From positions 3,424,001 through 3,488,000 of the forward strand of contig OZ241362.1 in NCBI GenBank assembly GCA_965200315.1: a stretch of DNA of 64,000 nt, in the 5' to 3' direction. Position 1 is the stretch's first letter; each line of letters begins with the position of its first letter. The translations under genes were made by a program, and so were the position numbers. The notes under the pieces are model-generated. The model was not told the origin of the DNA and ran no database searches. It was given only the letters and a program-made list of their open reading frames with translations. This document shows, in pieces, positions 4,653 to 50,401 of the stretch. This DNA comes from Candidatus Latescibacterota bacterium (GTDB lineage: Bacteria; Latescibacterota; UBA2968; UBA8231).

Positions 4653-6224
4653 ATGAACCAACCCAAGATCGTGTACTACCACGACGGCCGGCATCCCCAC
4701 ATCTACCGCTACGAGCCGCCCATGGCCCCCGAGGAATACATCGCCTTGGTCGATGAATTGGCCGGCACCACGGTCGAAGCCATCGCCTTCTGCCTCGGCG
4801 AGGGCCGCACCATGCTGCACAACACCCGGGCCAGCGAGTTGATGGGGCACAACGTCGAGGTTTGGGATCACTACGTCTTTCGCCGCGCTTGGCAAAACGC
4901 TCAGTCCCTCATTGACGCCGGCCACGACCCCTTGCGCTTGGTTTGCGACCGGGCCCACGAGCTGGGCATCCAAGTCTATCCCACCTTAATCGTGCAGCGC
5001 GGCGGCGTTGACCACGCCTCGACGCGCTGCTCCAATTTCCGCATTGAGAACCAGCACCTCGAAATTGGCGCGGCCGGCGATCTCGACCCGGACTACCCCG
5101 GCTTTGACGGCCTCGACTTCAAGCACCCGGAGGTGCGCGACGAACGCTTTGCCCTTGTCGAAGAAGTGATGGGCGAGTATCCGGCCGACGGCTTTGAACT
5201 ACAACTCAACCAAATGCCCTATTTCTTCCACCCCGACGAAATCGACGCTGGGCGCGTCCTGATGACCGACTGGATCGGCCGGATCCACGAAGCGGTCAAA
5301 CACAGCGGCCCCGACAAAGAGCTGGTGGTACACATTCCCGACCGCCTAGACGATTGCGCCCGCGCCGGGCTTGACTTAGAGGAATGGGTCAAACGGGGCT
5401 TGGTCGATGTTATCGTCGCGGAAAACTTAGGCGAGAATTACCGCCTGAAAATGCAGGCCGACTACGCCGAATTTGTCGGCCTCACCCGAGGAACGCCCTG
5501 CCGCCTATTGGCCCCCCTGAACAGCATGGTCTTTTCCGACCGCCTGCTCGACGCGCCCCTATCCATGCTGCGGGCTGCGGCCTGCAACTTTTGGGCTCAA
5601 GGCGTTGACGGCCTCTATGTCTCCGAGTGGTTCCACTTGTGGCCGTATGAGGCGTCCTTTTACGAAAAGCTCAGGGAACTCCCCTACCCCAGCATTATGG
5701 CGGCCAAGGACAAATACTACTTCCTGCTCACCGACACCGCAGACGGCCCCGCGGTCAGCCGACCCAACCCGCTACCCAGCCGATTGAATCTGGCCCAGCC
5801 CGTCGAGCTGGCATTGACTATTGCCGACGACCTACAAAAGTGGGGGGAAGTTGGCCGCGTCCACGAAGTGTTGTTGCGCTTCCGCATCCACGGCAATGTC
5901 GAGACCGATCGCATCCAATTTGCGCTCAACGGCCAAGTTCTGCCCGACGCTCTGCGGCGCAAGATCAATTCGCTCTACACCATGGACGGTCCGCGCTACC
6001 GGGTGATGGGCGGGTACTGGCACATTTTCAAATTGGACGCGGCGCACTGGCCCGTGCGGGGGAAAAACCGCCTTGAAGTGACACTGCTGGAACGCGACGC
6101 GGATTTGGCCGATCCCTTCTGCACCCTGACCGACGTCGAACTGGAAACCAAGTACCTCAAGGGCCGGAGCTTCCACCGCGCCTATGTCGACCCCGACCTA
6201 GGGCCCTACCAACACCGGTCCTGA
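4653..6224 (+). CDS. Glycoside hydrolase-like (GHL10/DUF187-type TIM barrel) protein with C-terminal beta domain
   Basis: RAHELGIQVY, LDFKHPEVR and YPADGFEL motifs, plus GVDGLY typical of GHL10-like proteins. Confidence 0.65.
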   Translation: MNQPKIVYYHDGRHPHIYRYEPPMAPEEYIALVDELAGTTVEAIAFCLGEGRTMLHNTRASELMGHNVEVWDHYVFRRAWQNAQSLIDAGHDPLRLVCDRAHELGIQVYPTLIVQRGGVDHASTRCSNFRIENQHLEIGAAGDLDPDYPGFDGLDFKHPEVRDERFALVEEVMGEYPADGFELQLNQMPYFFHPDEIDAGRVLMTDWIGRIHEAVKHSGPDKELVVHIPDRLDDCARAGLDLEEWVKRGLVDVIVAENLGENYRLKMQADYAEFVGLTRGTPCRLLAPLNSMVFSDRLLDAPLSMLRAAACNFWAQGVDGLYVSEWFHLWPYEASFYEKLRELPYPSIMAAKDKYYFLLTDTADGPAVSRPNPLPSRLNLAQPVELALTIADDLQKWGEVGRVHEVLLRFRIHGNVETDRIQFALNGQVLPDALRRKINSLYTMDGPRYRVMGGYWHIFKLDAAHWPVRGKNRLEVTLLERDADLADPFCTLTDVELETKYLKGRSFHRAYVDPDLGPYQHRS

Positions 6225-6231
6225 CAACCGC

Positions 6232-7473
6232 TCATCTCTCCAGTACCGTCCCCTCGTCTAGCAGCCGCGCCATCATCTGGGCAAATTCGGGCGTACCGTC
6301 GTCGTCCCAGTACTCGGTCTCAATAGGCGCGGCGTAGCTGTGAGGCATCCCGCCCCGGGTCCAGTCGGGCCGGATCAGAAAATGGCGCGTCGTCAGGGGG
6401 TCGTATCTATGGTACATCCGCGTCCCATTGGCGAATTGCGATTTGACGATCCACGGCTTGATCGGCGGCAATTCCCGGTTCGCTAGCCGTTCCAACTCGT
6501 CGCGGTTCAAGGTCAAACCTAGGCCCGGCTTTTCCGGCACTCGAATAAGTCCGTTGACAGGCTCTAGGCGCTCGCTCACTACCTCGTCCTTGAGGATTTC
6601 GCTGCTGTCGATAAAGTGAAAGGTGGCGGAGGGAAAGGTCGCCATCATGTGGCAAACCATCGCCCGAGTGATCGTGCCGCCCACATTTTGCAACATGAAC
6701 GGTATATTGCCAGCGGCGAACAGCCCGGCGGTGCGAATCGCAGCACCAATTTTCTGGTGGCCGCGCATGTACACGTCTCCCGCCCCCATCAGCACCTCGT
6801 ACGTGGCGTCCAGCGGTGCTTGATGGCGCACGATGGGCAGGGAAATGCGCCGGCGCAAGTCAATTGACGCCAAGGTGTCGCCGGCGTTGAGCGAGTCTTC
6901 AAAGCAGCCGGCAATGGGATATTGGGCCAACCTAGCCAGCAGATCCGGCATGTAGTCATCGGTGCCGCCGCCGGTGAAATCGTAGTGGATCTTGAACCCG
7001 GGCGGGGCCACGGCCTGCATGGCCTCGGTCTGGTCGAAGACGTTCTCAAAGGGCGACAGGTGGAACTTGAGCCAAGTGTATCCCTCGGCGGCGTAGCACT
7101 CCACGGCCTCGGCCATATGGCTGGGGGCACTCGACACGGTCCAACTGCCTACCGGCACCCACGAGCGGTACTTCTGCCCGAAGAGCTTGTACACCGGTAC
7201 GCCCGCGGCTTGGCCCATCAAATCGTACATGGCCGTGCCCAGCCCGAGGGAAACTTCGTCGCCCATCCACTCAAAGGGATTGCTGCCCAAGTACTGGTCG
7301 ATCACTTCCTGCGGCTCGGGGCGGCCGCTCTCGCCTAGGCCGATCAGACCGGTATCGGTGTGGGCCACGTACACCGTGCGCCGGGTCACTCCTTGGTAGT
7401 GGCTGACCGGATAGGCGATCCAGTCTTGGTACTCTAGGCTGATTTCGCGTACCTCTATATCTGTGACTTTCAC
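6232..7473 (-). CDS. Mandelate racemase/muconate lactonizing enzyme (enolase superfamily)
   Basis: MKVTDIE..TDTGLIGLGE, YDLMGQAAGVPVYKLFG and VPEKPGLG motifs. Confidence 0.85.
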   Translation of the reverse strand: MKVTDIEVREISLEYQDWIAYPVSHYQGVTRRTVYVAHTDTGLIGLGESGRPEPQEVIDQYLGSNPFEWMGDEVSLGLGTAMYDLMGQAAGVPVYKLFGQKYRSWVPVGSWTVSSAPSHMAEAVECYAAEGYTWLKFHLSPFENVFDQTEAMQAVAPPGFKIHYDFTGGGTDDYMPDLLARLAQYPIAGCFEDSLNAGDTLASIDLRRRISLPIVRHQAPLDATYEVLMGAGDVYMRGHQKIGAAIRTAGLFAAGNIPFMLQNVGGTITRAMVCHMMATFPSATFHFIDSSEILKDEVVSERLEPVNGLIRVPEKPGLGLTLNRDELERLANRELPPIKPWIVKSQFANGTRMYHRYDPLTTRHFLIRPDWTRGGMPHSYAAPIETEYWDDDGTPEFAQMMARLLDEGTVLER

Positions 7474-7591
7474 GACGCCTCCTAATTTGTCTGGTCGCCT
7501 GCGGCCCGTCAGATTGTCTGCAAGGCCCGCTAGCGATGGTGGTAGGGCAGGACAACGCGCACCTCAGCGAAGGCGCGTTAAAATCCCTAGG

Positions 7592-10500
7592 TCAATTTTT
7601 GACCGCAAAGAGAATTTTGTAGAGCACCGGCACGAACAGCAAGGTGATCACGGTGGCGAAAAGCAAGCCCACCATGATGGCCACCGCCATCGGCTCCCAC
7701 ATCAGCCCGCCGCCAAAGTAGAGAGGAATAAGCCCCAGCGTCGTCGTGCAGGTGGTCAGTAAGATAGGGCGAAAACGCTGCTGAGCCGCGGCGACGATCG
7801 CCTCAATAGGTGTCCGCCCGGGCCGGTCCAGTTCGATTTGTATGCGGTCTAGGAGCACGATAGCGTTGTTGATGACGATACCGGCCAGCGAGATCAATCC
7901 GAGAAAGGCGAAGAAACCAAAGAACGAGCGGAAGACAAGTAATCCGGCGATGACCCCAATCAGGCCGAGCGGAATGGTGCTCAGCACGATAAAGGTCTTG
8001 CGGAAGGAGTTGAACTGGACAATCAACAGTGCCAGAATGACAAAGCCGGACAGAGGCAGCTTGGCGACAACTGCGCTCATGGCCTCGCTGCTCTGCTCCG
8101 ACTCGCCGCCCAATTCGTAGCGGTAGCCCGGTTGCCAAAATTTGCTGTCTTCTTCGAGCCAAGGGATGAGCGCGTCGGTAATATGCTGCGCCGTAAAGCC
8201 GCTTTTGGCGTCGCAGGTCACAGTCAAGGTGCGGTACAGGTCGCGCCGTTTGATCTTGGCAAATTGCCACTGGGGCACAATCTGCGCCACTTGTCCCAGC
8301 GGCACGTTTTTGCCCGAACCTTGGGCGTAGATGTTGATGCTCTCTAGCTGTCGCACATCCACGTCCTGACTGCTTTCGTTGCGCAGGACAATGGGAATAC
8401 TTTGGTCGCCCTCGCGGAAATCACCCGTGTTAAACCCCGTGAGCGCGGTCTGCAACGAAAGGGCGATATCTTGGTTGGTCAGGTCGGCGTTCCGGGTCTT
8501 GGACTGGTCGATGTCAACGACGACCTTTTTGATCTTGGGGCCCCAATCGTCGCCGATGTTCTGAGCACTGGACATTTCGTTGAGTTTTTGCTTGATGCGC
8601 TCGGCGAGGCCGAACAGCTCGTTGGGCTCCGGCCCTGTTATCCGCACGGCCACGTCTCTACCGCCGCCGCCGCCCGCCAACCTCGAAACCTGCACCTCGG
8701 CATCGGGAAAGGAGCGGAAACAAAAGTCGTTTAGGCGATCAATTACCCACTGGTTATCGTCGCCTGAACTGGTATTGAGCAACATATGGGCGTATCCCGA
8801 GTTGGCTTCGCCCGCCTGATAACCTAGGTCGTAGGAGGGCGGCCCCTCGCCGACAAAGGTCGCCCAATCCGCTACCCCGCGCTGTCGGTTTTTGCTCACC
8901 AAAAGGCTATCCGCGATATACGACTCGAGCCGTTCCACCCGGGTGGTCGTCGTCTCGATCTTGGTGCCCAAGGGCAAATTCAGATTTACCGTCAACAGGT
9001 TGCGCTCGCTGTCAGGGAAGAAGACGAATGGCAAAAAACCAAAGCCGAAAAGCGACAACACAAACAAACCGGCGATGATCCCCATAAATGAATAGGGGCG
9101 CGCAAGGGCCTTGAGGAGCAACCCTTTGTAATGGCCGTTGATGCGCTCGATACCGGTGATTTTCCCGGACTGAGATGCTTGCCGTTTCACCCGGATGAAA
9201 AACACCGCCAACAAACTGACCATGGTCAGCGAGAGCAACCATGAAGAGAGCAAGGCTATGGAAATCACACTGAAAAGCGGCCCCATCATCTCACCCATGA
9301 TGGACGCAGCTAGAAAAAAGGACAAGAACGCGGCTGAAGTGGTCAGCGAAGAGACGAGGAGCGGTACGGCTAGATCCCGAGCGGATTCAATGGCCGCCTC
9401 TTGGGCGTCGGTGCCTCTTTCCATCTTGACCACAATCGCTTCGGACACCACGATGGCATTGTCCACCAACATGCCCAGTGCCATGATCAACGCCGCCAGC
9501 GACACCTGATTGAGACCGATATCGAGCACCCCCATGACAAAAAGGGTCGCGATAATGGTCATGGGAATGAGGCTGGCCACCACCAGACCGGTGCGCAGAC
9601 CCAAAAAGATCAGCATGGACAACAGCACGATAACGACGCTTTGCAAGAGATTGTCGGTAAAGTTGGCGACCGAATTCTCTACCTCAAAATCTTGGGAAGC
9701 CACTCTGTTGAAGGTTATCCCCAGCGGTAGCCGCGCTTGGTGGAGGGCGACTAATTGGTCGATTTCCTTACCCAACTTGATGATATTGGCCCCTTCGCTG
9801 AGGGCCACCGAGAGCGACAGACCCGGCTGACCGTTGATTTTGACTAGACGCTGCCGGGGCGTTTCATAGGCCCGCACGATGCGGGTTATATCGCCGAGGT
9901 ACACGCTCCCGCCCTTGCCCACCGCTATCAACGTCCTCCCCAGAGCTTCCAGATCGGCGTAATTGCCGGTCGGTTCGAGCACCAAGCGTTCATCCTCTAG
10001 GCTGACCTCGCCGCCGGAAAAAACGATGTTGGTACTGGCGATGCTGTTCTTGATCTTTTGGGCCGAAAGGCCCAATTCGGCCAGCCGGGCGTCGTTGAAT
10101 TGTAGGTATATCCGCTCCTCTTGGATGCCACTTATTTTTACTTCGGCGGCGTCGGGTAGCTTGATCAGGTCGTCTCGCAAGTTTTGGGCGTAGGTCTCAA
10201 GTTCGGCAAAGGTGAAACCCTCCCCTATCAGGCCGATCACAATGCCGTACACCACCCCGATCCCATCGTCCTTGACCTCCGGGCCATGGATGTCCGCGGG
10301 CAAATCCGAGCGGATGGTCTCGACCTTACGGCGCAATCGGTCCCATACGGCCTGGAGTTTGTCCGCGGGCACTTCCTGTTTGAGCTCTACCGAAACCATC
10401 GACAGGCCGGTCCGCGACTCACTCGTAACGGTTTTCAGTTCGGGCAACTCTTGCGCGACTTCTTCGAGCTTGCTGGTGATCAGGGCTTCGATCCGCTCGG

Positions 10501-43298: not shown

Positions 43299-43540
43299 CG
43301 CCGGAGCTTGGGTGCGCGGGCGTCGCGCCCGCTGCGCAACGCGGTCGGCCGGGCACTTGCAGACGGCTGCGGCCAAGAGCAGGCCAGTTTCAAACACCGG
43401 CTCATCGGCCACGATGGCGAGCAATTGATCGAATTTCACCGCAATAAATTGCCTTTTGAGCCTGTCGCCGGAGCTTGGGTGCGCGGGCGTCGCGCCCGCT
43501 GCACAACGCGGTCGGCCGGGCACTTGCAGACGGCTGCGGC
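43299..43540. repeat. 75-bp direct repeat x2 containing a REP hairpin, with a 92-bp spacer
   Basis: 43299-43373 and 43466-43540 differ at one base; core is GGGTGCGCGGGCGTCGCGCCCGC. Confidence 0.9.
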
Positions 43541-43571: not shown

Positions 43572-45895
43572 CTATAGCGGGTTCAAACACTGCGTTGTCT
43601 CCGCCCGGTCGCCTATCTCCTGCCAATCCCACAACTGCGGTATAAATTCCACATCGGCCCAAAGCCGGGCTTGGTCGGCGTAGTGCGGGCTAGCCGGGTG
43701 GCCAGAGGCCCCCAGCGGCGCGATCCAGCGCGACCGGGTCCAGTCAGACGGGTCGAAGATATAGCGGTTGACCGAAAGGCCCGTAACTGTGAAGTCGTCG
43801 AAGGCATAGCTGCCGGCCAGAGGCGTGTCGCCATCGCCGTGGACGGGAAGCGACGGGGGGTCGAACAAGGAAGCGGCTGCGGGGAAAACCGCCGAGAGCG
43901 GATGCTGAGGCTGGATGCGGTGCAAGCGGCCCCAACGCCATTGGCCCATGTCCTTGCCGAGAGCTTCTTTGAGCGCGGCGAGCGCGCCAGTCAGGGCCTC
44001 AGTCAGGGCTTGGGACCACGTTTGGCCGGGCGGCAGCAGCGCCGTGTCGCCGCGCTCGATAGCGAGGGTTGCTTCGAGGTGTATAAGACGCCAGTGGGCG
44101 TCGCCGCCAGCCTCTGCGAGCAAGGTCAAGGCGTCGCCGCCGAACAGGTTTTGCGCAATGTGGTAGCCAAGCAGGGCGCGAGTTTGGGCATAGATCGCCG
44201 GCTGGACTTGGTCGCGGTCCATCCGGCAGTCCCATTGGCTCAGCAGGTTGAGGGCTTGGGCGCAGTCGGCGTCGGGTGGCTCGATGGCGAGCAAGGCCCG
44301 CGTAAAAACCTCGGCCGGCAGCGAGACGCGTTCGGCGTGGATGCGGCCCATAGCCTCGGGCGTGGCCGTGCCCTTTGCTAGTTCGCGGATGCGGGTCTGG
44401 ATGCGGCGGGCTCGGTAGTCCGGGCTAAAGACAAGCCCGACATAGTAGGGATAATCCGTGCCGGTCACGCGCTGGTTGCAGGTGATGGCATAGCCTGTTG
44501 CCGGGTCTATGGCTTTGGGCAACTCGGCGTGGGGGATGTAGCCCTGCCATTCGTGCTCGCCGCTCCAGCCGGGGACGGCGCACCAGCCGTTGGCGGCCTC
44601 GCGCACCGGGATCCGGCCCGCGTGTAGATAGCCGAAGCAGCCGTGGACATCGGCGACAGCGTAGTTGTTGACGCGGTCGGTCCAGCGGGCGAAGGCTTGG
44701 TGCAAGTCCGCGACCGAGCGGGCGCGCATGGCATCGCGGGCCGCATCGGCCCAAGGGGTTCCCTCGATGAGGCCGGGGTCGCTGATAGCGATGGCTTGGC
44801 CCTTGCGCGGGTCGCCAGCAATGATAGGCCCGTGGTGGGTAATGACGACCTCGGAGGTGACGGATGCCGCGCCGCGGACGTGAATTTCTTCCCGCAGGAT
44901 TTCCGCGGGTCGCCACGCGCCGCTGAATTCGTACTCCAAGCCGTCGGCCGTTTCGCGGAAGCGCTCGACGAACAAATCTTGAGTATCGGCACTGCCGTAG
45001 GTCATGCCCCAAGCCACGTATTCGTTGTGGCAAAAGTGCAAGGTGCCGGGGAGCCGGGGACCGAATAGCCGCTGACGGCGAAGTCGGGGCAGGCGAGGTG
45101 GACTTGGTAATAGACGGAAGGAGTGTCGAGGGCGCGATGCGAGTCGCCGGCCACCAGCGGCAAGCCCGAATCCGTGTACGCACCCGCGATGGACCACGCA
45201 TTGGAGCCGGGGTCGGTTTCGCGGCAGAGAGCGGCGAGGCCATCGAGAGGTTCTCCTTGGTACTCGGTGCCGGGGGGCACGGTGAGCAGGTGGCCTTGGG
45301 GATAGCCTTTGATGAGCCGAGCGAGGTTTGCGGCCACAATACTGTGGCCGGACTGCTCAGGGCCGACGGCTTGGGCCAGACGGGTGCGCCAGAGCTTGGA
45401 TTCAAAGGTGCCGAGCAGGCTATTGCGCATCTTGTACACGGCGAGGCAGTGCCAGCTTTCCCACGGCTCGGGCTGCTGGCCGAGGAGTTGGTATTCGACG
45501 GGTAGGGCCGTTGTCGTCGCCAAAAAGGCGTTGACGCCCGCGGCGTATGCGTCGAACATGGCGCGGGCTTGGGGGCTGGACGCTTCGTAGTCCAACTTAG
45601 CAGTGCGGCCCATGCCGGCGGCGCGCAGGAGGCGGTCGCGGCCCAGCCCGGCGGGGCCGGCCCATTCGGCCCAGCGGCCTAGGGCTTGGTGGCGATCGAA
45701 GTCCATCTGCCACAGGCGGTCTTGGGCGGTGGCGAAGCCTTGGGCGAAAAACAGGTCGGCTTCCGATTCAGCTTGGATATGGGGGATTCCCCAAGGGTCG
45801 CGGTGGATGGTGACGGTTTTTTCAAGGCCCGCGCAATACTGGGTGCTTTCGAGATCGGGGAGGGCCGCTTGGAGGTCTTTGGCAGTGATAGGCAT
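43572..45895 (-). pseudogene. Penicillin acylase (Ntn hydrolase) family gene with a single frameshift
   Basis: The first frame has RDPWGIPHI, AQDRLWQMD and GSNAW. The second has HFCHNEYVAWG, THHGP and GASGHPASPHY. The frame changes at ~45051, where VPG-FPG lacks one T. Confidence 0.85.
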
Positions 45896-45952
45896 GGCGT
45901 TCCTCGTGTGGGTTGGTTCAGGGTATTCTGCAAGGCAAATGCGTTTGCCGCA
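45843..45952. repeat. 110-bp direct repeat, copy 1 (acylase 5' end plus upstream sequence)
   Basis: Identical to 48447-48556 except for one synonymous substitution. Confidence 0.95.
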
Positions 45953-45980
45953 AGGCACATCCGTAGCTTTGTCTCCGAGC

Positions 45981-46094
45981 CTAAGTACCCGACAGTAGGG
46001 CCGTCTCTGGGTGCGCGGGCGTCTCGCCCGCATGGCCGGGCCGAGGTCCGCACTCATAGAGGGGATACATGCACAGGAAGTGTCGCGTACTTAG
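45981..46094. mobile_element. 114-bp MITE with TIRs and 8-bp target-site duplication
   Basis: TIRs CTAAGTACCCGACA / TGTCGCGTACTTAG match at 13/14. CTCCGAGC flanks both sides (45973-45980, 46095-46102). It carries an internal REP hairpin. Confidence 0.85.
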
Positions 46095-46447
46095 CTCCGA
46101 GCCCCCGACTCTTATATGCGTTCATCATCTTGACAAAATCCAAAAAATTGGGGTTTGTCTGATACGGCTCCTTAACGTGCTGGAGGGCTACATGACCAAG
46201 ACATAGCAGGCGATCGGCCCCGTAGCCACCGCGGCCAACGACTGCGCTGCAGCAGACTTGCGACTTATTTTTACCGAATCCCGCCACAGTATGCCTCTGT
46301 ATTCGTCTCTATCGGTCTGAAAAACGGCTAGAGGGCTGTTGCGAGCCGGGCTTTAGCTTGAGCGGTCTCGCTCAGGTGCTGTGGTCGCCCGACAAACGGC
46401 TTCCGGTGCTGGAGGGTAATTGGCTATGAAATCGAGAGACATCGGCT

Positions 46448-47485
46448 ATGAAGCGTTTTTGGTCCACTTACGAGTTCACTCTCCGTCAGGAACGGCGGCG
46501 GCGAAAATTCGACCAGCGACGGCGCCATGTACAGGAACGGCAAACGGCGTTGCGGAAGCGACCTCCGAGACTCCGATCAACACGCTCTCGTCAACAAGAA
46601 TCATCGCTGCCAGCACCCGAAGCACTCAGTCTTTTCGACGAACCTGACAAGACTCTCGAGTACTGCAACACATTACGGGGGCATCTTAACCAACGGGGCA
46701 CCAAGATCTTTCTTGACCTTGGCGATGTCCAACATTTCACCAGTGATGCGCTCCTTCTGATTCGAGCAATTATAGCCTCCAGTGTCCATCACAATCAGGT
46801 CAGCGGAAATTTACCACGGGATCCAGCTATAGCCTCCGAATTCAAAGCATCTGGTTTCTTCGCCGGCTTTGCCAAGCCACCGGCTAACCTTCCTCCTGCA
46901 AAAGGACTGATATTAAAAAAATCAAGCGACAAGGTGCTAGCGGAAATGGCTGCGGAATTAGTCGACTTCGTAAAGAAACACGTACCCATCACCAAGGAAT
47001 GCGCTAATGCCTGTTCCCAGACTCTTGTCGAGGTCATGACAAACACTCACAATCACGCGGGAGGCATGAAACCTGTAGGACGTCAGAAGCGACGTTTTCC
47101 CCAAAAATGGTTCGTCAGCGTCTATTGCCGAGATCAGACTGCTTACTTCAGCTTTATAGATCTTGGTATTGGTATTCTAGAGAGCGCACCAGCAAGAAAC
47201 ATACTGCAAAGAGCTGGGGCTTCGCTTTCCTCGTATGGACGAATCAGTTTACTAGAAGACGCCTTCAAGGGGCGCATCGGATCTGCTACAGGTAAACCCG
47301 GCAGGGGACTCGGACTGCCTAGGATGAAACAGGATGCGGAGAGCGGCATGTTATCGGACCTTCAAGTATTGACATCTGACATCGTCGGATCTGTTGCTTC
47401 TCTTGACTTCAGAACAGTCGCCCATTCTTTGCGCGGCACAATGTTTCGTTGGCGCGCCCTTCACAAGGAGTCGAGCAATGATTGA
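46448..47485 (+). CDS. STAS-like + GHKL (anti-sigma-factor-type) ATPase/kinase
   Basis: IFLDLGDVQHFTSDAL STAS-like segment; N-box EVMTNTHNH, G1 DLGIGI, G2 GRGLGL and LRGT. The N-terminus is Arg-rich and there is no HisKA domain. Confidence 0.8.
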   Translation: MKRFWSTYEFTLRQERRRRKFDQRRRHVQERQTALRKRPPRLRSTRSRQQESSLPAPEALSLFDEPDKTLEYCNTLRGHLNQRGTKIFLDLGDVQHFTSDALLLIRAIIASSVHHNQVSGNLPRDPAIASEFKASGFFAGFAKPPANLPPAKGLILKKSSDKVLAEMAAELVDFVKKHVPITKECANACSQTLVEVMTNTHNHAGGMKPVGRQKRRFPQKWFVSVYCRDQTAYFSFIDLGIGILESAPARNILQRAGASLSSYGRISLLEDAFKGRIGSATGKPGRGLGLPRMKQDAESGMLSDLQVLTSDIVGSVASLDFRTVAHSLRGTMFRWRALHKESSND

Positions 47486-47831
47486 AATCAATATCGCCAA
47501 AGACTTCACGACACTACCAGGTCCACGATACAAGGAACAGGGGCCTGGATCCGGCCAGCAATTCCTAGAAAAACATCTAAGGCCTGCGTTCCTGAGGGCG
47601 AAAGAGACCAAAGAGCAGGTGACCATTCAACTCGATGGCGTCAAATACGGTTATCCCACGTCGTTTCTTGAAGAAGCGTTCGGCGGACTCGCCAGAGAGT
47701 TCGGGATAGAGGAGGTTCAGAGTTTTCTACGCTTCGAATCGGCAGCTGAACCGATGCTCGATTTCGAGATTCGCCACTACATCAAGCATGCCAACGACAC
47801 GCCAGGGACAAGCCCACGACCAGCGACATGA
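47478..47831 (+). CDS. Stand-alone STAS-like (DUF4325-type) protein
   Basis: IAKDF..PGPRY..G..SG..F and LDGV.GY.TSFLEEAFGGL motifs. AAGGAG RBS; start overlaps the upstream stop. Confidence 0.85.
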   Translation: MIEINIAKDFTTLPGPRYKEQGPGSGQQFLEKHLRPAFLRAKETKEQVTIQLDGVKYGYPTSFLEEAFGGLAREFGIEEVQSFLRFESAAEPMLDFEIRHYIKHANDTPGTSPRPAT

Positions 47832-48385
47832 GTAGCTTCAATATCCCCGCGATCATACTCAGTGCCCTCCTCGGCGCACTCGCCATGTCATTAGTGCGTG
47901 AACCCCAACTTCCGATTTCCGGCTTGATCAGCGCGACGGCAACCTTTGCCATCGGTTGGTGGATTCACAGGGCCGTGCGGCGCAGAGGAGAGCTTGACCG
48001 AATCCCGATCGATTACTTGTCGGATCTTAATCGCCGGATCAACGAGTTGATTTCGGCATGTCTGGGCCCTGCAAATGCAGAAGGCGAATCCAAACGCTTA
48101 GTGAATCTTACGCTGCTCTCCAATGAGATTCATTGGCTCCGCATCATTGCCAATAGGGTGCAACCCAAGCTGAGAGTGCAACCTAGGCTGAATCAGTTGG
48201 GAGACGAACTTGCCTCGCATTACGTGGACTTCAAGAGGCATCTGACCGAGAGCGATTCGGTCGATCTGGTAGCGGCCTCGAACGCCAGCCACGAGATACG
48301 GATGACCGCTCTGATGGTCCAATGGCGCATCTGCCGGCATATCCTCGATCGAAAAACAGACATCGACATCTTCACATCCCTTTGA
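47828..48385 (+). CDS. Hypothetical protein with two N-terminal TM helices
   Basis: ATGA overlap with the STAS gene. Hydrophobic segments at aa ~5-22 and ~29-47 are followed by a helical soluble region. Confidence 0.7.
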   Translation: MSSFNIPAIILSALLGALAMSLVREPQLPISGLISATATFAIGWWIHRAVRRRGELDRIPIDYLSDLNRRINELISACLGPANAEGESKRLVNLTLLSNEIHWLRIIANRVQPKLRVQPRLNQLGDELASHYVDFKRHLTESDSVDLVAASNASHEIRMTALMVQWRICRHILDRKTDIDIFTSL

Positions 48386-48446
48386 TGCTGAAACGCTAGC
48401 ACTCGTGTGGGTTGCGTTATTCTAGCGTCGCGGGCTAGAAAAAGGA

Positions 48447-48556
48447 GTGCTTTCGAGATCGGGGAGGGCCGCTTGGAGGTCTTTGGCAGTGATGGGCATG
48501 GCGTTCCTCGTGTGGGTTGGTTCAGGGTATTCTGCAAGGCAAATGCGTTTGCCGCA
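48447..48556. repeat. 110-bp direct repeat, copy 2
   Basis: Duplicate of 45843-45952. Confidence 0.95.
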
Positions 48557-48564
48557 GGCATACC

Positions 48565-48589
48565 TATTGAACTATTCTTTAGTTCAATA
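48565..48589 (+). promoter_or_regulatory. Probable vapBC autoregulatory operator
   Basis: Perfect inverted repeat TATTGAACTA-N5-TAGTTCAATA about 30 bp upstream of the antitoxin start. Confidence 0.65.
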
Positions 48590-48619
48590 TAGTTCACTTT
48601 ATAGTTCGGAGTTTATAAC

Positions 48620-48865
48620 ATGAAATCAATTACCATTCACGGAATGGACGATGAAATGGACCGGCAAATTAGGGAGAAAGCCGCAGCCGAGGGCAAGAGC
48701 CTGAACAAGACCATTAAAGGGTTGCTCAAACAGGCACTGGGAGGGCGGCGTTCGCGGCGAGAAGAATTTGTCGATCTCTTTGGTTGTTGGTCGGCAGCGG
48801 ATCTGGCCGAGTTTGAACAAGCGACAAAAGACCTTCGCCAGATTGATCCCGGCGACTGGAAATGA
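48620..48865 (+). CDS. vapB: Ribbon-helix-helix antitoxin (VapB/FitA-like)
   Basis: MKSITIHGMD..KAAAEGKSLN RHH pattern; ATGA-coupled to the PIN gene. Confidence 0.82.
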   Translation: MKSITIHGMDDEMDRQIREKAAAEGKSLNKTIKGLLKQALGGRRSRREEFVDLFGCWSAADLAEFEQATKDLRQIDPGDWK

Positions 48866-49254
48866 AGCGCATACTTCTCGACACCAATGCCTATACCGCA
48901 TTTCTAACTGGAGACGAGCGCGTACTGAATGCGCTAACTGAGGCAGAAACAGCGTTTTTATCCGCCATTGTCATTGGAGAATTGTACGCTGGCTTTTGCG
49001 GCGGCAATCGGCTCAAGGAAAACAAGGCTCTGCTAGCGCGTTTTTTGCAAAAGTTTAATGTGCGCGTCCTTGACGTCACCGCTGAAACCGGGGAAGTCTT
49101 CGGCCAAATCAAAAACGCGCTACAAGAGGCCGGAACGCCGATCCCGCTAAATGATGTATGGCTGGCGGCACAGGCCATGGAAACCGGCTCGGTTATCGTC
49201 TCCTTCGATGCGCACTTCGATCAAGTCAGCGGACTTAGACGCTGGACGCATTAG
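48862..49254 (+). CDS. vapC: VapC PIN-domain toxin
   Basis: ILLDTNAY, VIGEL, NDVWLAA and FDAHF motifs. Confidence 0.92.
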   Translation: MKRILLDTNAYTAFLTGDERVLNALTEAETAFLSAIVIGELYAGFCGGNRLKENKALLARFLQKFNVRVLDVTAETGEVFGQIKNALQEAGTPIPLNDVWLAAQAMETGSVIVSFDAHFDQVSGLRRWTH

Positions 49255-50401
49255 GCCGATCGTGGATCGGCCCGGGGTGGTCGCGGAGCGAGCCTCCCTG
49301 GCGGCCGGTGAGCGCGGCTTGGATTTCGCCGAGAATGGACAGAGCGATTTCCTCGGCTGCTTCCGCGCCGATGTCGAGGCCGACGGGGCTAAAGAGGCGT
49401 GCGGTCTGCTCATCGCTGGGCGCGATGTTTTCTTTTTTTAGATCGGCGAGCAGGCGCTGGGTGCGCTGATGCGGGCCGAGGACTCCCAAGTAGGCGAGAG
49501 GCGCGCCGAGTAAGTCCCGCAACAGAGCTTGATCCTGTAGATAGTTGTGGCTCATGATGACGGCACACGAGCGGTTGTCGAACTGAAGATCCGCGGGCAG
49601 ATGACCGGGCTGGGCGAGGAGGACTTGCCTAGCCCAAGGGAAGCGCTCGGCGCGAGCGTAAGCTGGCCGGTGGTCGGCGACGGTGACGCGCCAGCCGAGT
49701 TCGCTGGCTAGCTGGGCGAGAGGCACGGCGTCGTAGCCAGCGCCAAAGAGATAGAGGGCGATGGGGGGCAGCAGGGGTTCTATGAGGACGGCAGCCTTGC
49801 CGTGCGTCAGCTCGTAGTGGCGAGTATAGCCCGGGGCAATGGGAAGTCGGGTGGCATCGAGGGCCGCGAGGCTTTCGCTAGCGGCGTTGAGCGCAATCTC
49901 GCGCAGCTCCAAGTCGGCGATGTCGTCGCGGGCCTTTTCCCGCTCGTCGAGGATCAGATGCTGGCCCGGCGCAGCATGGGTTGCGCCCTCGGTAGCAAAG
50001 ACCGTGACGAGGACGCCGTGCTGATCCTCCAAGGCGCAGCCGTGCAAGAAGGTTGGATAGTGGAAAGGGCCGTCTTGGGGCAGGCACTCTAAGAGCACGT
50101 CCACCGTGCCGCTACAGCCCAGACCAGTGCCCCAGAGGATGTCGTCTTCCGAGGTGGCGTCGTAGTGGAGGAGACGGGGTTGGCCATCGGCGAAGACGGC
50201 TTGCGCGTTTTCGCGCACATCGCCTTCGAGGCAGCCGCCGCTGATGGTGCCCAAGCTCTGGAGATCGGCTTCGATGAGCATGCGGGTACCTGGGCCGCGA
50301 TAGACCGAGCCAGAGGTTTGGACGACCGTGGCCAAGACATAGGGCGCACCCGCCTCGTCGAGCACCCGGGCGCGGCCGAGGATCGTCTGCAAGTCTTTCA
50401 C
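49235..50401 (-). CDS. xdhC: XdhC/CoxF/CoxI family molybdoenzyme maturation factor
   Basis: GTISGGCLE, LGCSG, FGAGYDA and PVGLDIGA motifs. Confidence 0.9.
   Translation of the reverse strand: MKDLQTILGRARVLDEAGAPYVLATVVQTSGSVYRGPGTRMLIEADLQSLGTISGGCLEGDVRENAQAVFADGQPRLLHYDATSEDDILWGTGLGCSGTVDVLLECLPQDGPFHYPTFLHGCALEDQHGVLVTVFATEGATHAAPGQHLILDEREKARDDIADLELREIALNAASESLAALDATRLPIAPGYTRHYELTHGKAAVLIEPLLPPIALYLFGAGYDAVPLAQLASELGWRVTVADHRPAYARAERFPWARQVLLAQPGHLPADLQFDNRSCAVIMSHNYLQDQALLRDLLGAPLAYLGVLGPHQRTQRLLADLKKENIAPSDEQTARLFSPVGLDIGAEAAEEIALSILGEIQAALTGRQGGSLRDHPGPIHDRPNASSV

Follow-up and report, generated by a model that had tools for sequence, protein, structure and literature searches.

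Three genes lie one after another on the forward strand of the 64-kb stretch of Latescibacterota DNA analysed here (the window): gene 1 at 46448-47485 (345 aa), gene 2 at 47478-47831 (117 aa) and gene 3 at 47828-48385 (185 aa). The stop of gene 1 runs past the ATG of gene 2 (47478) with an overlap of 8 nt (ATGATTGA); AAGGAG is found 8 nt upstream of that ATG, and the stop of gene 2 shares 4 nt with the ATG of gene 3 (ATGA). Taken in 500-nt windows, the GC content is 0.48-0.55 across 46250-49249 and 0.60-0.68 on either side. A preliminary description, made from the letters alone, had spoken of three coupled genes in an AT-rich cassette, and both the overlaps and the drop in GC bear this out. 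The low-GC stretch also extends over a vapBC pair downstream. An AT-rich cassette can be read as a fresh insertion; we reject this reading because the trio occupies the identical site in five related Latescibacterota genomes. A 110-nt direct repeat (45843-45952 and 48447-48556, 99% identical, the only two copies in the genome) was rejected as a mobility signature; it is present as a single copy in the five related genomes that carry the trio at the same site.

The surroundings of the trio in the window are housekeeping genes. The 10 flanking proteins scanned, between 34969 and 53960, are FloA, NfeD, an amidohydrolase, HrpA, penicillin amidase (two ORFs), XdhC, CoxE-VWA, MoxR and MoaA; none is a sigma factor or a PP2C phosphatase, in line with what had been stated earlier about this neighbourhood. 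The sole defence-type neighbour is the vapBC pair, whose canonical vapC is separate from the trio, at 48862-49254. This pair was rejected as a part of the system: among 58 related loci, vapC is found in none and vapB only in L007, L002 and L003. A promoter scan returned 0 promoter-like sites, a terminator scan returned 5 terminator-like sites where 3.4 are expected, and Rfam gave no match over 45000-50000.

The protein of gene 1 has no match of its own in Pfam, NCBIfam or PADLOC, and a single-sequence search of the PDB also returned none; 79 homologues were found. Its AF2 model (pLDDT 90.3) consists of a helix at residues 8-37, a STAS-like fold at residues 49-144 (46592-46879) and a GHKL fold, the ATP-binding/kinase domain, at residues 152-342 (46901-47473). 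Residues 1-48 form one long basic helix and a linker modelled with low confidence; the Arg-rich N-terminus of about 50 aa noted before is evident in residues 1-56 (46448-46615), with 19 R/K and 5 D/E. The GHKL boxes can all be located: N (E195, N199, H203), G1 (D238, G240, G242), G2 (R286, G287, G289) and G3 (G330, T331). In a family alignment of 59 sequences, N199, H203, D238, G240, G242, G287 and G289 are invariant, and E195, G330 and T331 are each found in 58. No DHp helix pair is present ahead of the GHKL domain, and no N-terminal HTH is seen in the model, where the single basic helix precedes the STAS-like domain. The earlier reading of gene 1 as a STAS-like domain joined to a complete GHKL domain, with no dimerisation domain, is thus upheld by the model and by the invariant boxes.

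Fold comparison points in a consistent direction. With VIA-align, the GHKL domain of gene 1 matches SpoIIAB (1l0o_A) at Z 14.1 and rmsd 2.5 over 137 aligned residues, followed by RsbW (Z 12.0), Rv1364c (11.5) and UsfX (11.0); CA domains of histidine kinases reach Z 9.8 at most, below all of these. The best Foldseek matches are likewise SpoIIAB, at E 2.3e-6. For the STAS-like domain, the matches include the anti-sigma antagonists 4qtp_A (Z 8.8) and 1sbo_A (Z 8.5), then 4hyl_B (Z 8.1) and SpoIIAA 1tid_B (Z 7.4), and the family profile finds 1sbo_A at E 0.17. Pfam recognises STAS in 5 and HATPase_c in 4 of the 59 family members. In its model, gene 1 is therefore folded like an anti-sigma Ser kinase, here preceded by a basic helix and a STAS-like domain in what we describe as a VapK-like arrangement.

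Gene 2 matches the Pfam family DUF4325 (PF14213) at E 5.9e-11, and its 42.4 bits pass the gathering cut-off of 23 bits. This STAS-like domain, at residues 25-92, is the only one in the protein. The motif GYPTSFLEE lies where it had been placed before and contains T61 and S62 (codons at 47658-47663), which we propose as the phospho-acceptor loop on the basis of conservation, alignment and a predicted interface. Of 51 relatives, 36 have T at position 61, 14 have S and 1 has A; at position 62, 50 have S and 1 has A. Searched against the PDB, the family profile finds 9z7o_A, ‘Escherichia VapS’, at E 0.028 and the STAS protein 3t6o_A at E 0.81. In alignments, T61 falls on the Ser that VapS-type proteins conserve; the direct comparison of gene 2 with a VapS-like profile is weak (probability 16%, E 0.0016). 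Closer to the N-terminus, a PGxR...G..SG..F motif is conserved in the family, with R17, G22, G26 and F29 invariant. We regard gene 2 as a VapS-like protein, and as the putative antitoxin and kinase substrate of the trio.

GHKL domains are ATPases in many families, and gene 1 could instead be an ATPase or clamp like the MutL- and MORC-type proteins, with the STAS protein regulated by binding; topoisomerase VI and MutL do appear low in the gene 1 fold list. We find this very improbable. The best folds are, by a clear margin, Ser/Thr kinases of the SpoIIAB/RsbW group, Ser or Thr is present at positions 61 and 62 in 50 of the 51 gene 2 partners, and the homologous CapK has been shown to phosphorylate its STAS partner (PMC13373217).

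Gene 3 had been described as a helical protein with two transmembrane segments and with neither PIN nor HTH, and the model and domain searches agree, the second transmembrane segment being marginal. The AF2 model (pLDDT 88) has helices at 6-24, 30-79, 84-114, 120-140 and 147-174, giving a predicted transmembrane hairpin at about 6-24 and 30-52 and a predicted cytoplasmic four-helix bundle at about 53-174. On the 15-residue Kyte-Doolittle scale, the second segment scores 1.39 in the gene 3 of the window, just below the cut of 1.5 that 45 of 50 relatives reach. Pfam, NCBIfam and PADLOC have no family for the protein, and no consistent Pfam family emerges among the 50 relatives; the sole hit to a model of SLATT-type membrane effectors is NCBIfam SLATT_4, at E 0.14 and 12 bits against a cut-off of 55 bits, over transmembrane residues 4-40. 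Foldseek finds nothing in the PDB at E<=0.001 with the model. The Atlas, searched with the gene 3 homologue P0100, returns only clusters named ‘hypothetical protein’, and folds from outside reach TM 0.37 at most. With the soluble domain, VIA-align returns only generic four-helix bundles at Z values usual for helical bundles, which we rejected as an indication of function. Neither the family nor the fold searches revealed a resemblance to any known pore former or toxin. The family is large: gene 3 matches 2,244 cluster representatives at E<=1e-3 and at least 1,258 at E<=1e-10. It is also the fastest-evolving of the three proteins, with a median pairwise identity of 15%; its only near-invariant residue is T140, which is T in 47 of the 50 relatives.

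Gene 3 keeps its place. Across the 58 related loci, drawn from species-representative genomes, 57 have gene 2 after gene 1, and 53 have a gene 3 that can be recognised (52 co-directional, 1 inverted), with an unrecognised transmembrane ORF in the gene 3 slot at 2 more. A lack of gene 3 beside kinase/STAS homologues had been named in the preliminary description as a possible refutation; these counts speak for its conservation. Pairwise identities among the three proteins correlate over 40 loci (Spearman 0.55, 0.66 and 0.36, the pairs being non-independent), and no conserved fourth gene is found beyond gene 3. The trio is a conserved unit. By their record titles, the loci belong to Latescibacterota, Acidobacteriota, Pseudomonadota, Bacteroidota, Patescibacteria, Firmicutes, Omnitrophota and others, and within the genus of our genome gene 3 has matches in only 7 of 30 other genomes.

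The trio is also found on phages and plasmids. A gene 1 relative is present on four IMG/VR viral contigs; two carry the complete trio (L113 and L114, the latter immediately after tail and lysis genes), and in the other two it is the locus that ends at gene 2 (L115 and L116). In Marinobacter phage AS1 the trio adjoins a gene for a Cro/CI family regulator; on a Leptospira plasmid it lies beside an MNT/HepT pair, and on an Acinetobacter plasmid it is flanked by IS copies. For Francisella phage KIRK, a table in PMC7924643 places three products between the CI repressor and the integrase: a hypothetical protein (293 aa), a DUF4325 protein (112 aa) and a transmembrane protein (125 aa). Searching plasmid and phage collections by tblastn with gene 1 gave no match; gene 2 found 2 phage and 11 plasmid records, of which 3 were inspected (H1, H3 and H4), and the other ten may be other DUF4325 architectures. 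A scan of neighbouring genes, covering 149 ORFs at 22 of the 58 loci (L025-L046) and made with no background control, gave modest tallies, from which no enrichment is claimed: Resolvase 6, Recombinase 4, DNA methylases about 7 and Phage_integrase 2, all others being housekeeping. A check for defence annotation, proposed in the preliminary description, drew a blank in PADLOC: none of the three proteins is modelled in its 2023 release. The trio is mobile and accessory.

This distribution bears on whether the trio is simply a housekeeping partner switch that adjusts some membrane or stress function in its host and has nothing to do with toxin-antitoxin (TA) activity or defence. It has the kinase and STAS folds of the classical sigma-factor partner switches, housekeeping genes flank it in the window, and it holds the same site in five related genomes. 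We nonetheless think such a role quite unlikely, given a trio that is scattered over unrelated phyla and occurs on viral contigs, in a cultured phage and on plasmids, gene 3 matches in so few congeners, and flanking proteins with no sigma factor or PP2C among the 10 scanned.

Modelling of the STAS and membrane proteins as a pair had been suggested earlier. Complex prediction with gene 2 and residues 50-185 of gene 3 gives a score of 0.88; the best of 3 controls scores 0.01. In calibration, 58 of 80 solved complexes passed the mark used for such predictions, as did 2 of 110 mismatched pairs; these counts hold only roughly for this pair since custom alignments were used. The runs agree on at least 93% of the contacts, with a partner pLDDT of at least 88. 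The closest contacts are between gene 2 residues 60-62 and gene 3 residues 136-141, which include T140, and both T61 and S62 are inside the predicted interface. Neither Foldseek nor VIA-align, run with the gene 3 model, found a similar solved complex; therefore, the score is unlikely to come from a memorised structure. Interface residues are more conserved than the rest in gene 2 (entropy 1.59 vs 2.02) and not more conserved in gene 3 (2.81 vs 2.75). Gene 2 is thus predicted to bind gene 3 via the T61/S62 loop, a location that fits with phosphorylation freeing an effector.

The closest known counterpart is VapKSC, an operon of a kinase, a STAS antitoxin and a PIN toxin (Chambers, Rani, Min, Villa, Corbett; EMBO J 2026; PMC13373217). 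As described there, VapS is the antitoxin, its conserved S48 is buried against VapC, the substitution S48E abolishes binding, and the operon gives about 2 logs of protection against phage Bas42. The CapK/CapS and VapC-type kinase-STAS systems that the preliminary description had named are real. The gene 1 profile survey itself led to an operon of this type (L112), in which the kinase is accompanied by a DUF4325 protein (Pfam 3.7e-15) and a PIN protein (Pfam 4.6e-7); hhalign aligns the gene 1 profile with this VapKSC-type kinase over 246 columns (probability 95.5%, E 1.6e-8). Elsewhere in the same genome as our trio there is a further VapKSC-type operon (L120; DUF4325 2.5e-13, PIN 1.9e-7). Judged by sequence profiles, the kinase/STAS module of the trio is homologous to that of VapKSC-type operons.

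The two arrangements share their gene order, a STAS-GHKL kinase with no HTH, a small second protein of the DUF4325/STAS kind in which a Ser/Thr is conserved (DUF4325 is the family of gene 2 and also of the VapS-like proteins of L112 and L120) and a third gene; the acceptor is buried against the third protein in VapKSC and predicted to be so here. The differences lie in the third gene, a PIN nuclease in VapKSC and a protein with two transmembrane segments and a four-helix bundle in the trio; in the basic N-terminal extension of about 55 residues in gene 1, which the L112 kinase lacks; and in the PGxR...G..SG..F motif of gene 2, not seen in the VapS-like proteins of L112 and L120. More distant kinase/STAS pairs (L093, L094, L095 and L097) also have a third gene with a Kyte-Doolittle transmembrane segment, and the third gene of L099 is transmembrane/helical as judged by eye from its translation. 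The word ‘transmembrane’ has 0 occurrences in the main text of PMC13373217, and no membrane-effector variant of VapKSC is described in the literature searched; datasets EV1-EV3 of that article may list such operons. The claim of a new system thus holds in part: the order of the genes and the kinase/STAS module are those of the published VapKSC, and the membrane protein in the toxin slot is what sets the trio apart. Rather than a new system, it is more aptly called a new effector variant of one that was published in 2026, and it has the look of a membrane-acting sibling of VapKSC not described before.

Kinase/DUF4325 pairs without any third gene also exist; therefore, the pair can serve other outputs. 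In that light, gene 3 could be an input or anchor, a membrane tether or sensor (of envelope stress or phage entry, for example) that controls the availability of the STAS protein while the output lies outside the operon. Its rapid divergence would suit such a role, as would a protein with no toxin-like feature and a generic four-helix bundle of the kind found in sensor domains (TorS, NarQ and McpS are among the matches). However, a PIN toxin fills the same slot in the sibling operons (L112, L120; PMC13373217), the trio moves self-contained among phyla, phages and plasmids with no conserved fourth gene, and the acceptor loop lies in the predicted interface, as in the VapS-VapC pair. We regard the input or anchor role as unlikely.

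Two further groups of relatives help to place the trio. CapK/CapS shares with it a STAS-GHKL kinase and a STAS substrate encoded directly downstream (a putative substrate in our case), and its switch, ssDNA-triggered phosphorylation of a conserved Ser, would apply to the trio by analogy (PMC13373217). CapK has an N-terminal HTH, whereas gene 1 does not, and CapS carries a C-terminal wHTH and represses a downstream immune operon, whereas gene 2 is STAS only and no operon is conserved beyond gene 3. The preliminary description had suggested that the basic N-terminus of gene 1 would sense nucleic acid; the ssDNA site proposed for CapK and VapK in the same article is the groove between STAS and GHKL, not the N-terminal tail. 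SpoIIAB-SpoIIAA and RsbW-RsbV are the top structural matches of both the kinase domain and the STAS folds and share the GHKL domain with N, G1 and G2 boxes and no DHp; in these switches a Ser kinase phosphorylates the STAS protein at the start of a helix, a step that is putative here. They differ from the trio in that no sigma factor or PP2C gene was found among its scanned neighbours, gene 1 carries its own STAS-like domain, and the partner is a DUF4325 protein rather than a canonical STAS.

By analogy with VapKSC, we somewhat favour the view that the trio is a self-contained phosphorylation switch of the same type, with a membrane protein in place of the PIN nuclease as the effector released by phosphorylation. 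At rest, gene 2 would sit on the cytoplasmic four-helix bundle of gene 3, in contact via the T61/S62 loop, and keep it inactive. The trigger, going by CapK and VapK, would probably be ssDNA or another by-product of infection or damage. Gene 1 would then phosphorylate T61 or S62, and the phosphate would break the interface between gene 2 and gene 3. Once free, gene 3 may damage the cell membrane, for instance through oligomerisation and depolarisation, so that growth stops and the infection is aborted. The switch would be one-way because no phosphatase was found among the 10 flanking proteins scanned. The predicted interface (T61/S62 of gene 2 and T140 of gene 3) makes this model testable by a few point mutants.

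The broader reading, to which we give a little less than an even chance, is that of a widespread, unnamed abortive-infection/TA system in which a STAS-fold antitoxin clamps the bundle of a membrane toxin and a nucleic-acid-activated, SpoIIAB-like kinase releases the toxin by a single phosphorylation. Membrane abortive-infection effectors such as lambda RexB and the CBASS/Pycsar transmembrane effectors are small and inactive until a cytoplasmic sensor fires, and several are encoded by prophages beside a repressor. The proposed output of the trio is the same, and its setting in Marinobacter phage AS1 is similarly on the repressor side. What activates those effectors is a protein or nucleotide signal and not the phosphorylation of an antitoxin, and no sequence or fold relationship between them and gene 3 was found.

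If the broader reading is true, the kinase/STAS pair would be a general, swappable trigger whose effectors are unrelated: VapKSC would use it on a nuclease, the trio on a membrane protein and CapKS on transcription. The matches at E<=1e-10 would represent a new family of membrane toxins. If the switch model holds, the PIN-toxin phospho-switch of 2026 would be modular, with sensor and effector swapping of the kind that organises bacterial immunity, and the larger set of matches at E<=1e-3, nameless in all sources consulted, would gain a function. The model would also explain phage and plasmid genes whose present labels are ‘ATP-binding protein’, ‘STAS-like domain-containing protein’ and ‘hypothetical protein’.

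The locus consists of three genes on the forward strand: gene 1 (46448-47485; 345 aa), gene 2 (47478-47831; 117 aa) and gene 3 (47828-48385; 185 aa). A preliminary description had proposed a trio of kinase, STAS protein and membrane protein, encoded by translationally coupled genes in an AT-rich cassette, and open reading frames (ORFs), folds and conservation confirm it. The gene 1 stop overlaps the gene 2 ATG by 8 nt, AAGGAG lies upstream of that ATG, the gene 2 stop and gene 3 ATG share the overlap ATGA, and GC content is 0.48-0.55 across 46250-49249 vs 0.60-0.68 on either side. The trio is flanked by housekeeping genes (FloA, NfeD, amidohydrolase, HrpA, penicillin amidase, XdhC, CoxE-VWA, MoxR and MoaA). 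That the trio is itself a housekeeping partner switch seems improbable to us; as the same description had stated, these flanking genes include no sigma factor or phosphatase.

Gene 1 matches no Pfam, NCBIfam or PADLOC model, and a PDB search from the single sequence gives no match. It has 79 clustered homologues. In a 59-sequence family alignment, the GHKL-box residues N199, H203, D238, G240, G242, G287 and G289 are invariant, and E195, G330 and T331 are each kept in 58 of 59. When the 59 members are compared singly with Pfam, five match STAS, four HATPase_c (best E 7.9e-5), two STAS_2, and one each HATPase_c_2 and HATPase_c_5. The AF2 model (pLDDT 90.3, pTM 0.82) contains a long helix (residues 8-37), an alpha/beta domain (49-144) and a second domain (152-342). 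SpoIIAB chains are the top Foldseek matches (1th8_A, E 2.3e-6, then 1til_E and 1l0o_A). In VIA-align against 48,161 representative chains, residues 152-342 resemble SpoIIAB (1l0o_A; Z 14.1, rmsd 2.5, 137 aligned), RsbW (6m36_A; Z 12.0), the RsbW domain of Rv1364c (Z 11.5) and UsfX (Z 11.0), with histidine-kinase CA domains lower, at Z of at most 9.8. Residues 49-144 resemble anti-sigma antagonists (4qtp_A, Z 8.8; 1sbo_A, Z 8.5; 4hyl_B, Z 8.1) and SpoIIAA (1tid_B, Z 7.4), and residues 1-56 contain 19 R/K and 5 D/E. From the box conservation, fold matches and R/K content, the earlier picture of gene 1 (STAS-like fold, GHKL boxes, basic N-terminus) is therefore correct. Conserved GHKL boxes could also belong to an ATPase that is no kinase, a reading that we regard as very improbable beside a fold closest to SpoIIAB.

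Gene 2, previously assigned as a DUF4325-type STAS protein, does match Pfam DUF4325 ('STAS-like', E 5.9e-11). All 51 relatives keep R17, G22, G26, F29 and F63; at position 61, 36 of them carry T, 14 carry S and one carries A, and at position 62, 50 carry S and one carries A. The family profile matches PDB entry 9z7o_A, 'Escherichia VapS' (E 0.028), with T61 aligned to S66, and the STAS protein 3t6o_A (E 0.81). Since 9z7o_A has 134 residues and VapS numbering in the paper (PMC13373217) runs to 116, we infer an 18-residue tag, not read from the PDB entry, by which S66 would be VapS S48.

Gene 3 belongs to no family in Pfam, NCBIfam or PADLOC, and 50 relatives scanned singly against Pfam show no recurrent one; fold searches return generic four-helix bundles only, and the Atlas unnamed clusters only. 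Its AF2 model (pLDDT 88, pTM 0.73; helices 6-24, 30-79, 84-114, 120-140 and 147-174) is a transmembrane (TM) hairpin whose second helix continues into a four-helix bundle. This agrees with the two TM segments and helical soluble domain proposed before, though TM segment 2 of this copy scores 1.39 (Kyte-Doolittle, 15-residue window), below the cut of 1.5 that segment 1 exceeds in 47 and segment 2 in 45 of 50 relatives. T140, kept as T in 47 of 50 relatives, is the sole near-invariant residue. When 1.84 billion cluster representatives are searched exhaustively with the family profile, 2,244 match at E<=1e-3, of which 1,258 reach E<=1e-10 and 39 reach E<=1e-30; the best 150 of the 2,244 are all 163-212 aa and align over their full length, so this set of 150 shows no fusion.

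A published system offers a close comparison. CapK (HTH-STAS-GHKL) and CapS (STAS-wHTH) control immune operons, and ssDNA activates CapK; VapKSC consists of VapK (STAS-GHKL), VapS (STAS with a short C-terminal helix) and a VapC-like PIN toxin that VapS neutralises (Chambers et al., EMBO J 2026, PMC13373217). In the same paper, VapS S48E loses binding and rescue, and the VapKSC operon gives ~2 logs of protection from phage Bas42. Genes 1 and 2 are homologous to the first two parts of VapKSC, whereas the third gene encodes a membrane protein in place of the PIN toxin; because this defining toxin is absent, the trio is not a VapKSC member. The gene 1 profile has matches in 19 of 400 genomes of one class. 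One of the loci, L112, is a VapKSC-type operon that encodes a kinase of 288 aa together with DUF4325 (3.7e-15) and PIN (4.6e-7) proteins; hhalign pairs the profile with this kinase over 246 columns and both domains (95.5% probability, E 1.6e-8), and T61 of gene 2 with the conserved Ser of the VapS-like protein that corresponds to S66 of 9z7o_A (low probability, 16%; E 0.0016). Remoter kinase/STAS pairs of this survey are likewise accompanied by a third gene for a small TM/helical protein, with a Kyte-Doolittle TM segment in L093, L094, L095 and L097 and by eye in L099. Outside the window, the same genome has a second DUF4325 gene (2.5e-13) in another VapKSC-type operon (L120, G000:C1:703068-706256), flanked by a PIN ORF (Pfam 1.9e-7) and a 215-aa GHKL ORF apparently without the STAS part; both effector variants therefore coexist there.

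The trio most likely works like VapKSC. On balance we favor, with modest confidence, a one-way phospho-switch of SpoIIAB-like kinase, STAS antitoxin and membrane effector: a trigger would act upstream of a kinase reaction in which gene 1 would phosphorylate gene 2, gene 3 would be toxic at the membrane, and the trio would serve an anti-phage role. The switch principle itself was already published in 2026, and the evidence on the trio here is computational. In the main text of PMC13373217 'transmembrane' has 0 occurrences, and with that main text as the scope for the paper, we found no description of a membrane-effector variant in the literature.

A contact between gene 2 and gene 3 is predicted from family alignments of both, using gene 3 residues 50-185. 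The median score is 0.88 vs 0.01 for the best of 3 controls; it expresses model confidence rather than a measurement. Of 80 solved complexes, 58 attain the score mark, as do 2 of 110 mismatched pairs; this calibration is only rough here because our own alignments were used. Three runs agree on at least 93% of contacts, with partner pLDDT of at least 88. The predicted interface comprises gene 2 residues 17, 21, 56-62, 65 and 90-100 and gene 3 residues 88-102 and 129-143, and the lowest-error pairs join gene 2 60-62 with gene 3 136-141, including T140. The predicted contact mirrors the logic of the VapS-VapC crystal structure; fold searches with the gene 3 model found no solved template for the complex. 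By entropy, the interface is more conserved than the rest in gene 2 (1.59 vs 2.02) and not in gene 3 (2.81 vs 2.75). That gene 3 is instead a sensor or anchor we consider unlikely, if less so than the other alternatives. For the phospho-switch, the predicted interface offers a sharp test.

A pattern scan with one genome per species yields 58 loci, in which trio genes were called by iterated profile searches on ORFs. A gene 2 homologue directly follows gene 1 in 57, and gene 3 is conserved beside these kinase/STAS homologues in 53 (52 co-directional; in L010, region 7295-8080, it is inverted and converges on gene 2). The slot holds an unrecognised TM ORF in two (L031, L039), the contig stops before it in L009, and L013 has an IS-cut gene 1 and no gene 3. 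In L056 (Spirochaetota MAG, 6001-6900), tblastn matches gene 1 with no matching ORF of at least 40 aa; this may be a pseudogene or reflect another genetic code. As labelled in the records, the taxa include Latescibacterota, Acidobacteriota, Pseudomonadota, Bacteroidota, Patescibacteria, Firmicutes, Omnitrophota, Fibrobacterota, Bdellovibrionota and others. The module is widely distributed and lacks annotation. Pairs of loci have a median identity of 26% in gene 1, 40% in gene 2 and 15% in gene 3, and the identity matrices are correlated (Spearman 0.55, 0.66 and 0.36; 40 loci, pairs not independent). The trio is accessory and no recent insertion at this site, because gene 3 has matches in 7 of 30 other genomes of the genus (one weak, one with an internal stop) and five related Latescibacterota (L001, L002, L003, L007, L015) have the trio in this same position, following the amidase gene.

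Mobile elements also carry the module. Relatives of gene 1 occur on four IMG/VR viral contigs, two with the whole trio (L113, adjoining a serine integrase, phrog_95; L114, preceded by tail, amidase (phrog_822) and neighbouring lysis-region genes) and two where the locus stops at gene 2 (L115, L116). With gene 2 as query, tblastn matches 2 records of phages and 11 of plasmids, and contents are known for three of the 13. The cultured Marinobacter phage AS1 (L117, MK088078.1 30502-32428), which would be a handy experimental model, encodes the trio as AS1_41, AS1_40 and AS1_39, all annotated hypothetical, with 4-nt overlaps and an adjoining Cro/CI family regulator gene. On a Leptospira interrogans plasmid an MNT/HepT pair adjoins the trio ('ATP-binding protein', 'STAS-like domain-containing protein', hypothetical protein); on an Acinetobacter plasmid an IS interrupts gene 1. 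Francisella phage KIRK has genes for a 293-aa hypothetical, a 112-aa DUF4325 and a 125-aa TM protein between CI repressor and integrase (PMC7924643). Among 149 neighbouring ORFs at 22 loci, the commonest Pfam families are Resolvase (6), Recombinase (4) and N6_N4_Mtase (3), then N6_Mtase, Eco57I, Phage_integrase and DUF772 (2 each), along with many housekeeping families; because this tally had no background control, we claim no enrichment.

DUF4325 also occurs in several other architectures, in 39 of 401 genomes of one class (L059, L063-L091; genomes 0.6-1.8 Mb): a GHKL-like protein (~320 aa) then DUF4325 (~100 aa) with no third gene; a ~345-aa protein with N-terminal wHTH-like part, weak GHKL match and C-terminal DUF4325; and a MerR-like HTH protein (~240 aa) then DUF4325 (~90 aa).

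A canonical vapBC pair lies in the low-GC stretch 235 nt downstream of gene 3: vapB (RHH, 48620-48865) and vapC (PIN, E 1e-16, 48862-49254). None of the 58 related loci has vapC; L007 has a whole vapB, and L002 and L003 have fragments of it. The trio is flanked by two copies of a 110-nt direct repeat (45843-45952 and 48447-48556; 99% identity), the only ones genome-wide. Copy 1 takes in the 5' end of the penicillin-amidase gene and the sequence upstream of it; copy 2, just upstream of vapB, is genome-specific, because five related genomes have copy 1 only, and could be a duplicated promoter. The amidase gene (43572-46057, reverse strand) is in two overlapping ORFs, 45002-46057 and 43572-45197, covering Pfam profile positions 1-224 and 219-673; related loci have one ORF of about 770-820 codons at the corresponding place, and the split reflects a frameshift or else an assembly error in the region of 45000-45197. 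In the hrpA-amidase gap, two 75-nt GC-rich direct repeats (43299-43373 and 43466-43540), 99% identical and 167 nt apart, share a 24-nt core that recurs at 46008-46031; the repeat may be a REP-like element.
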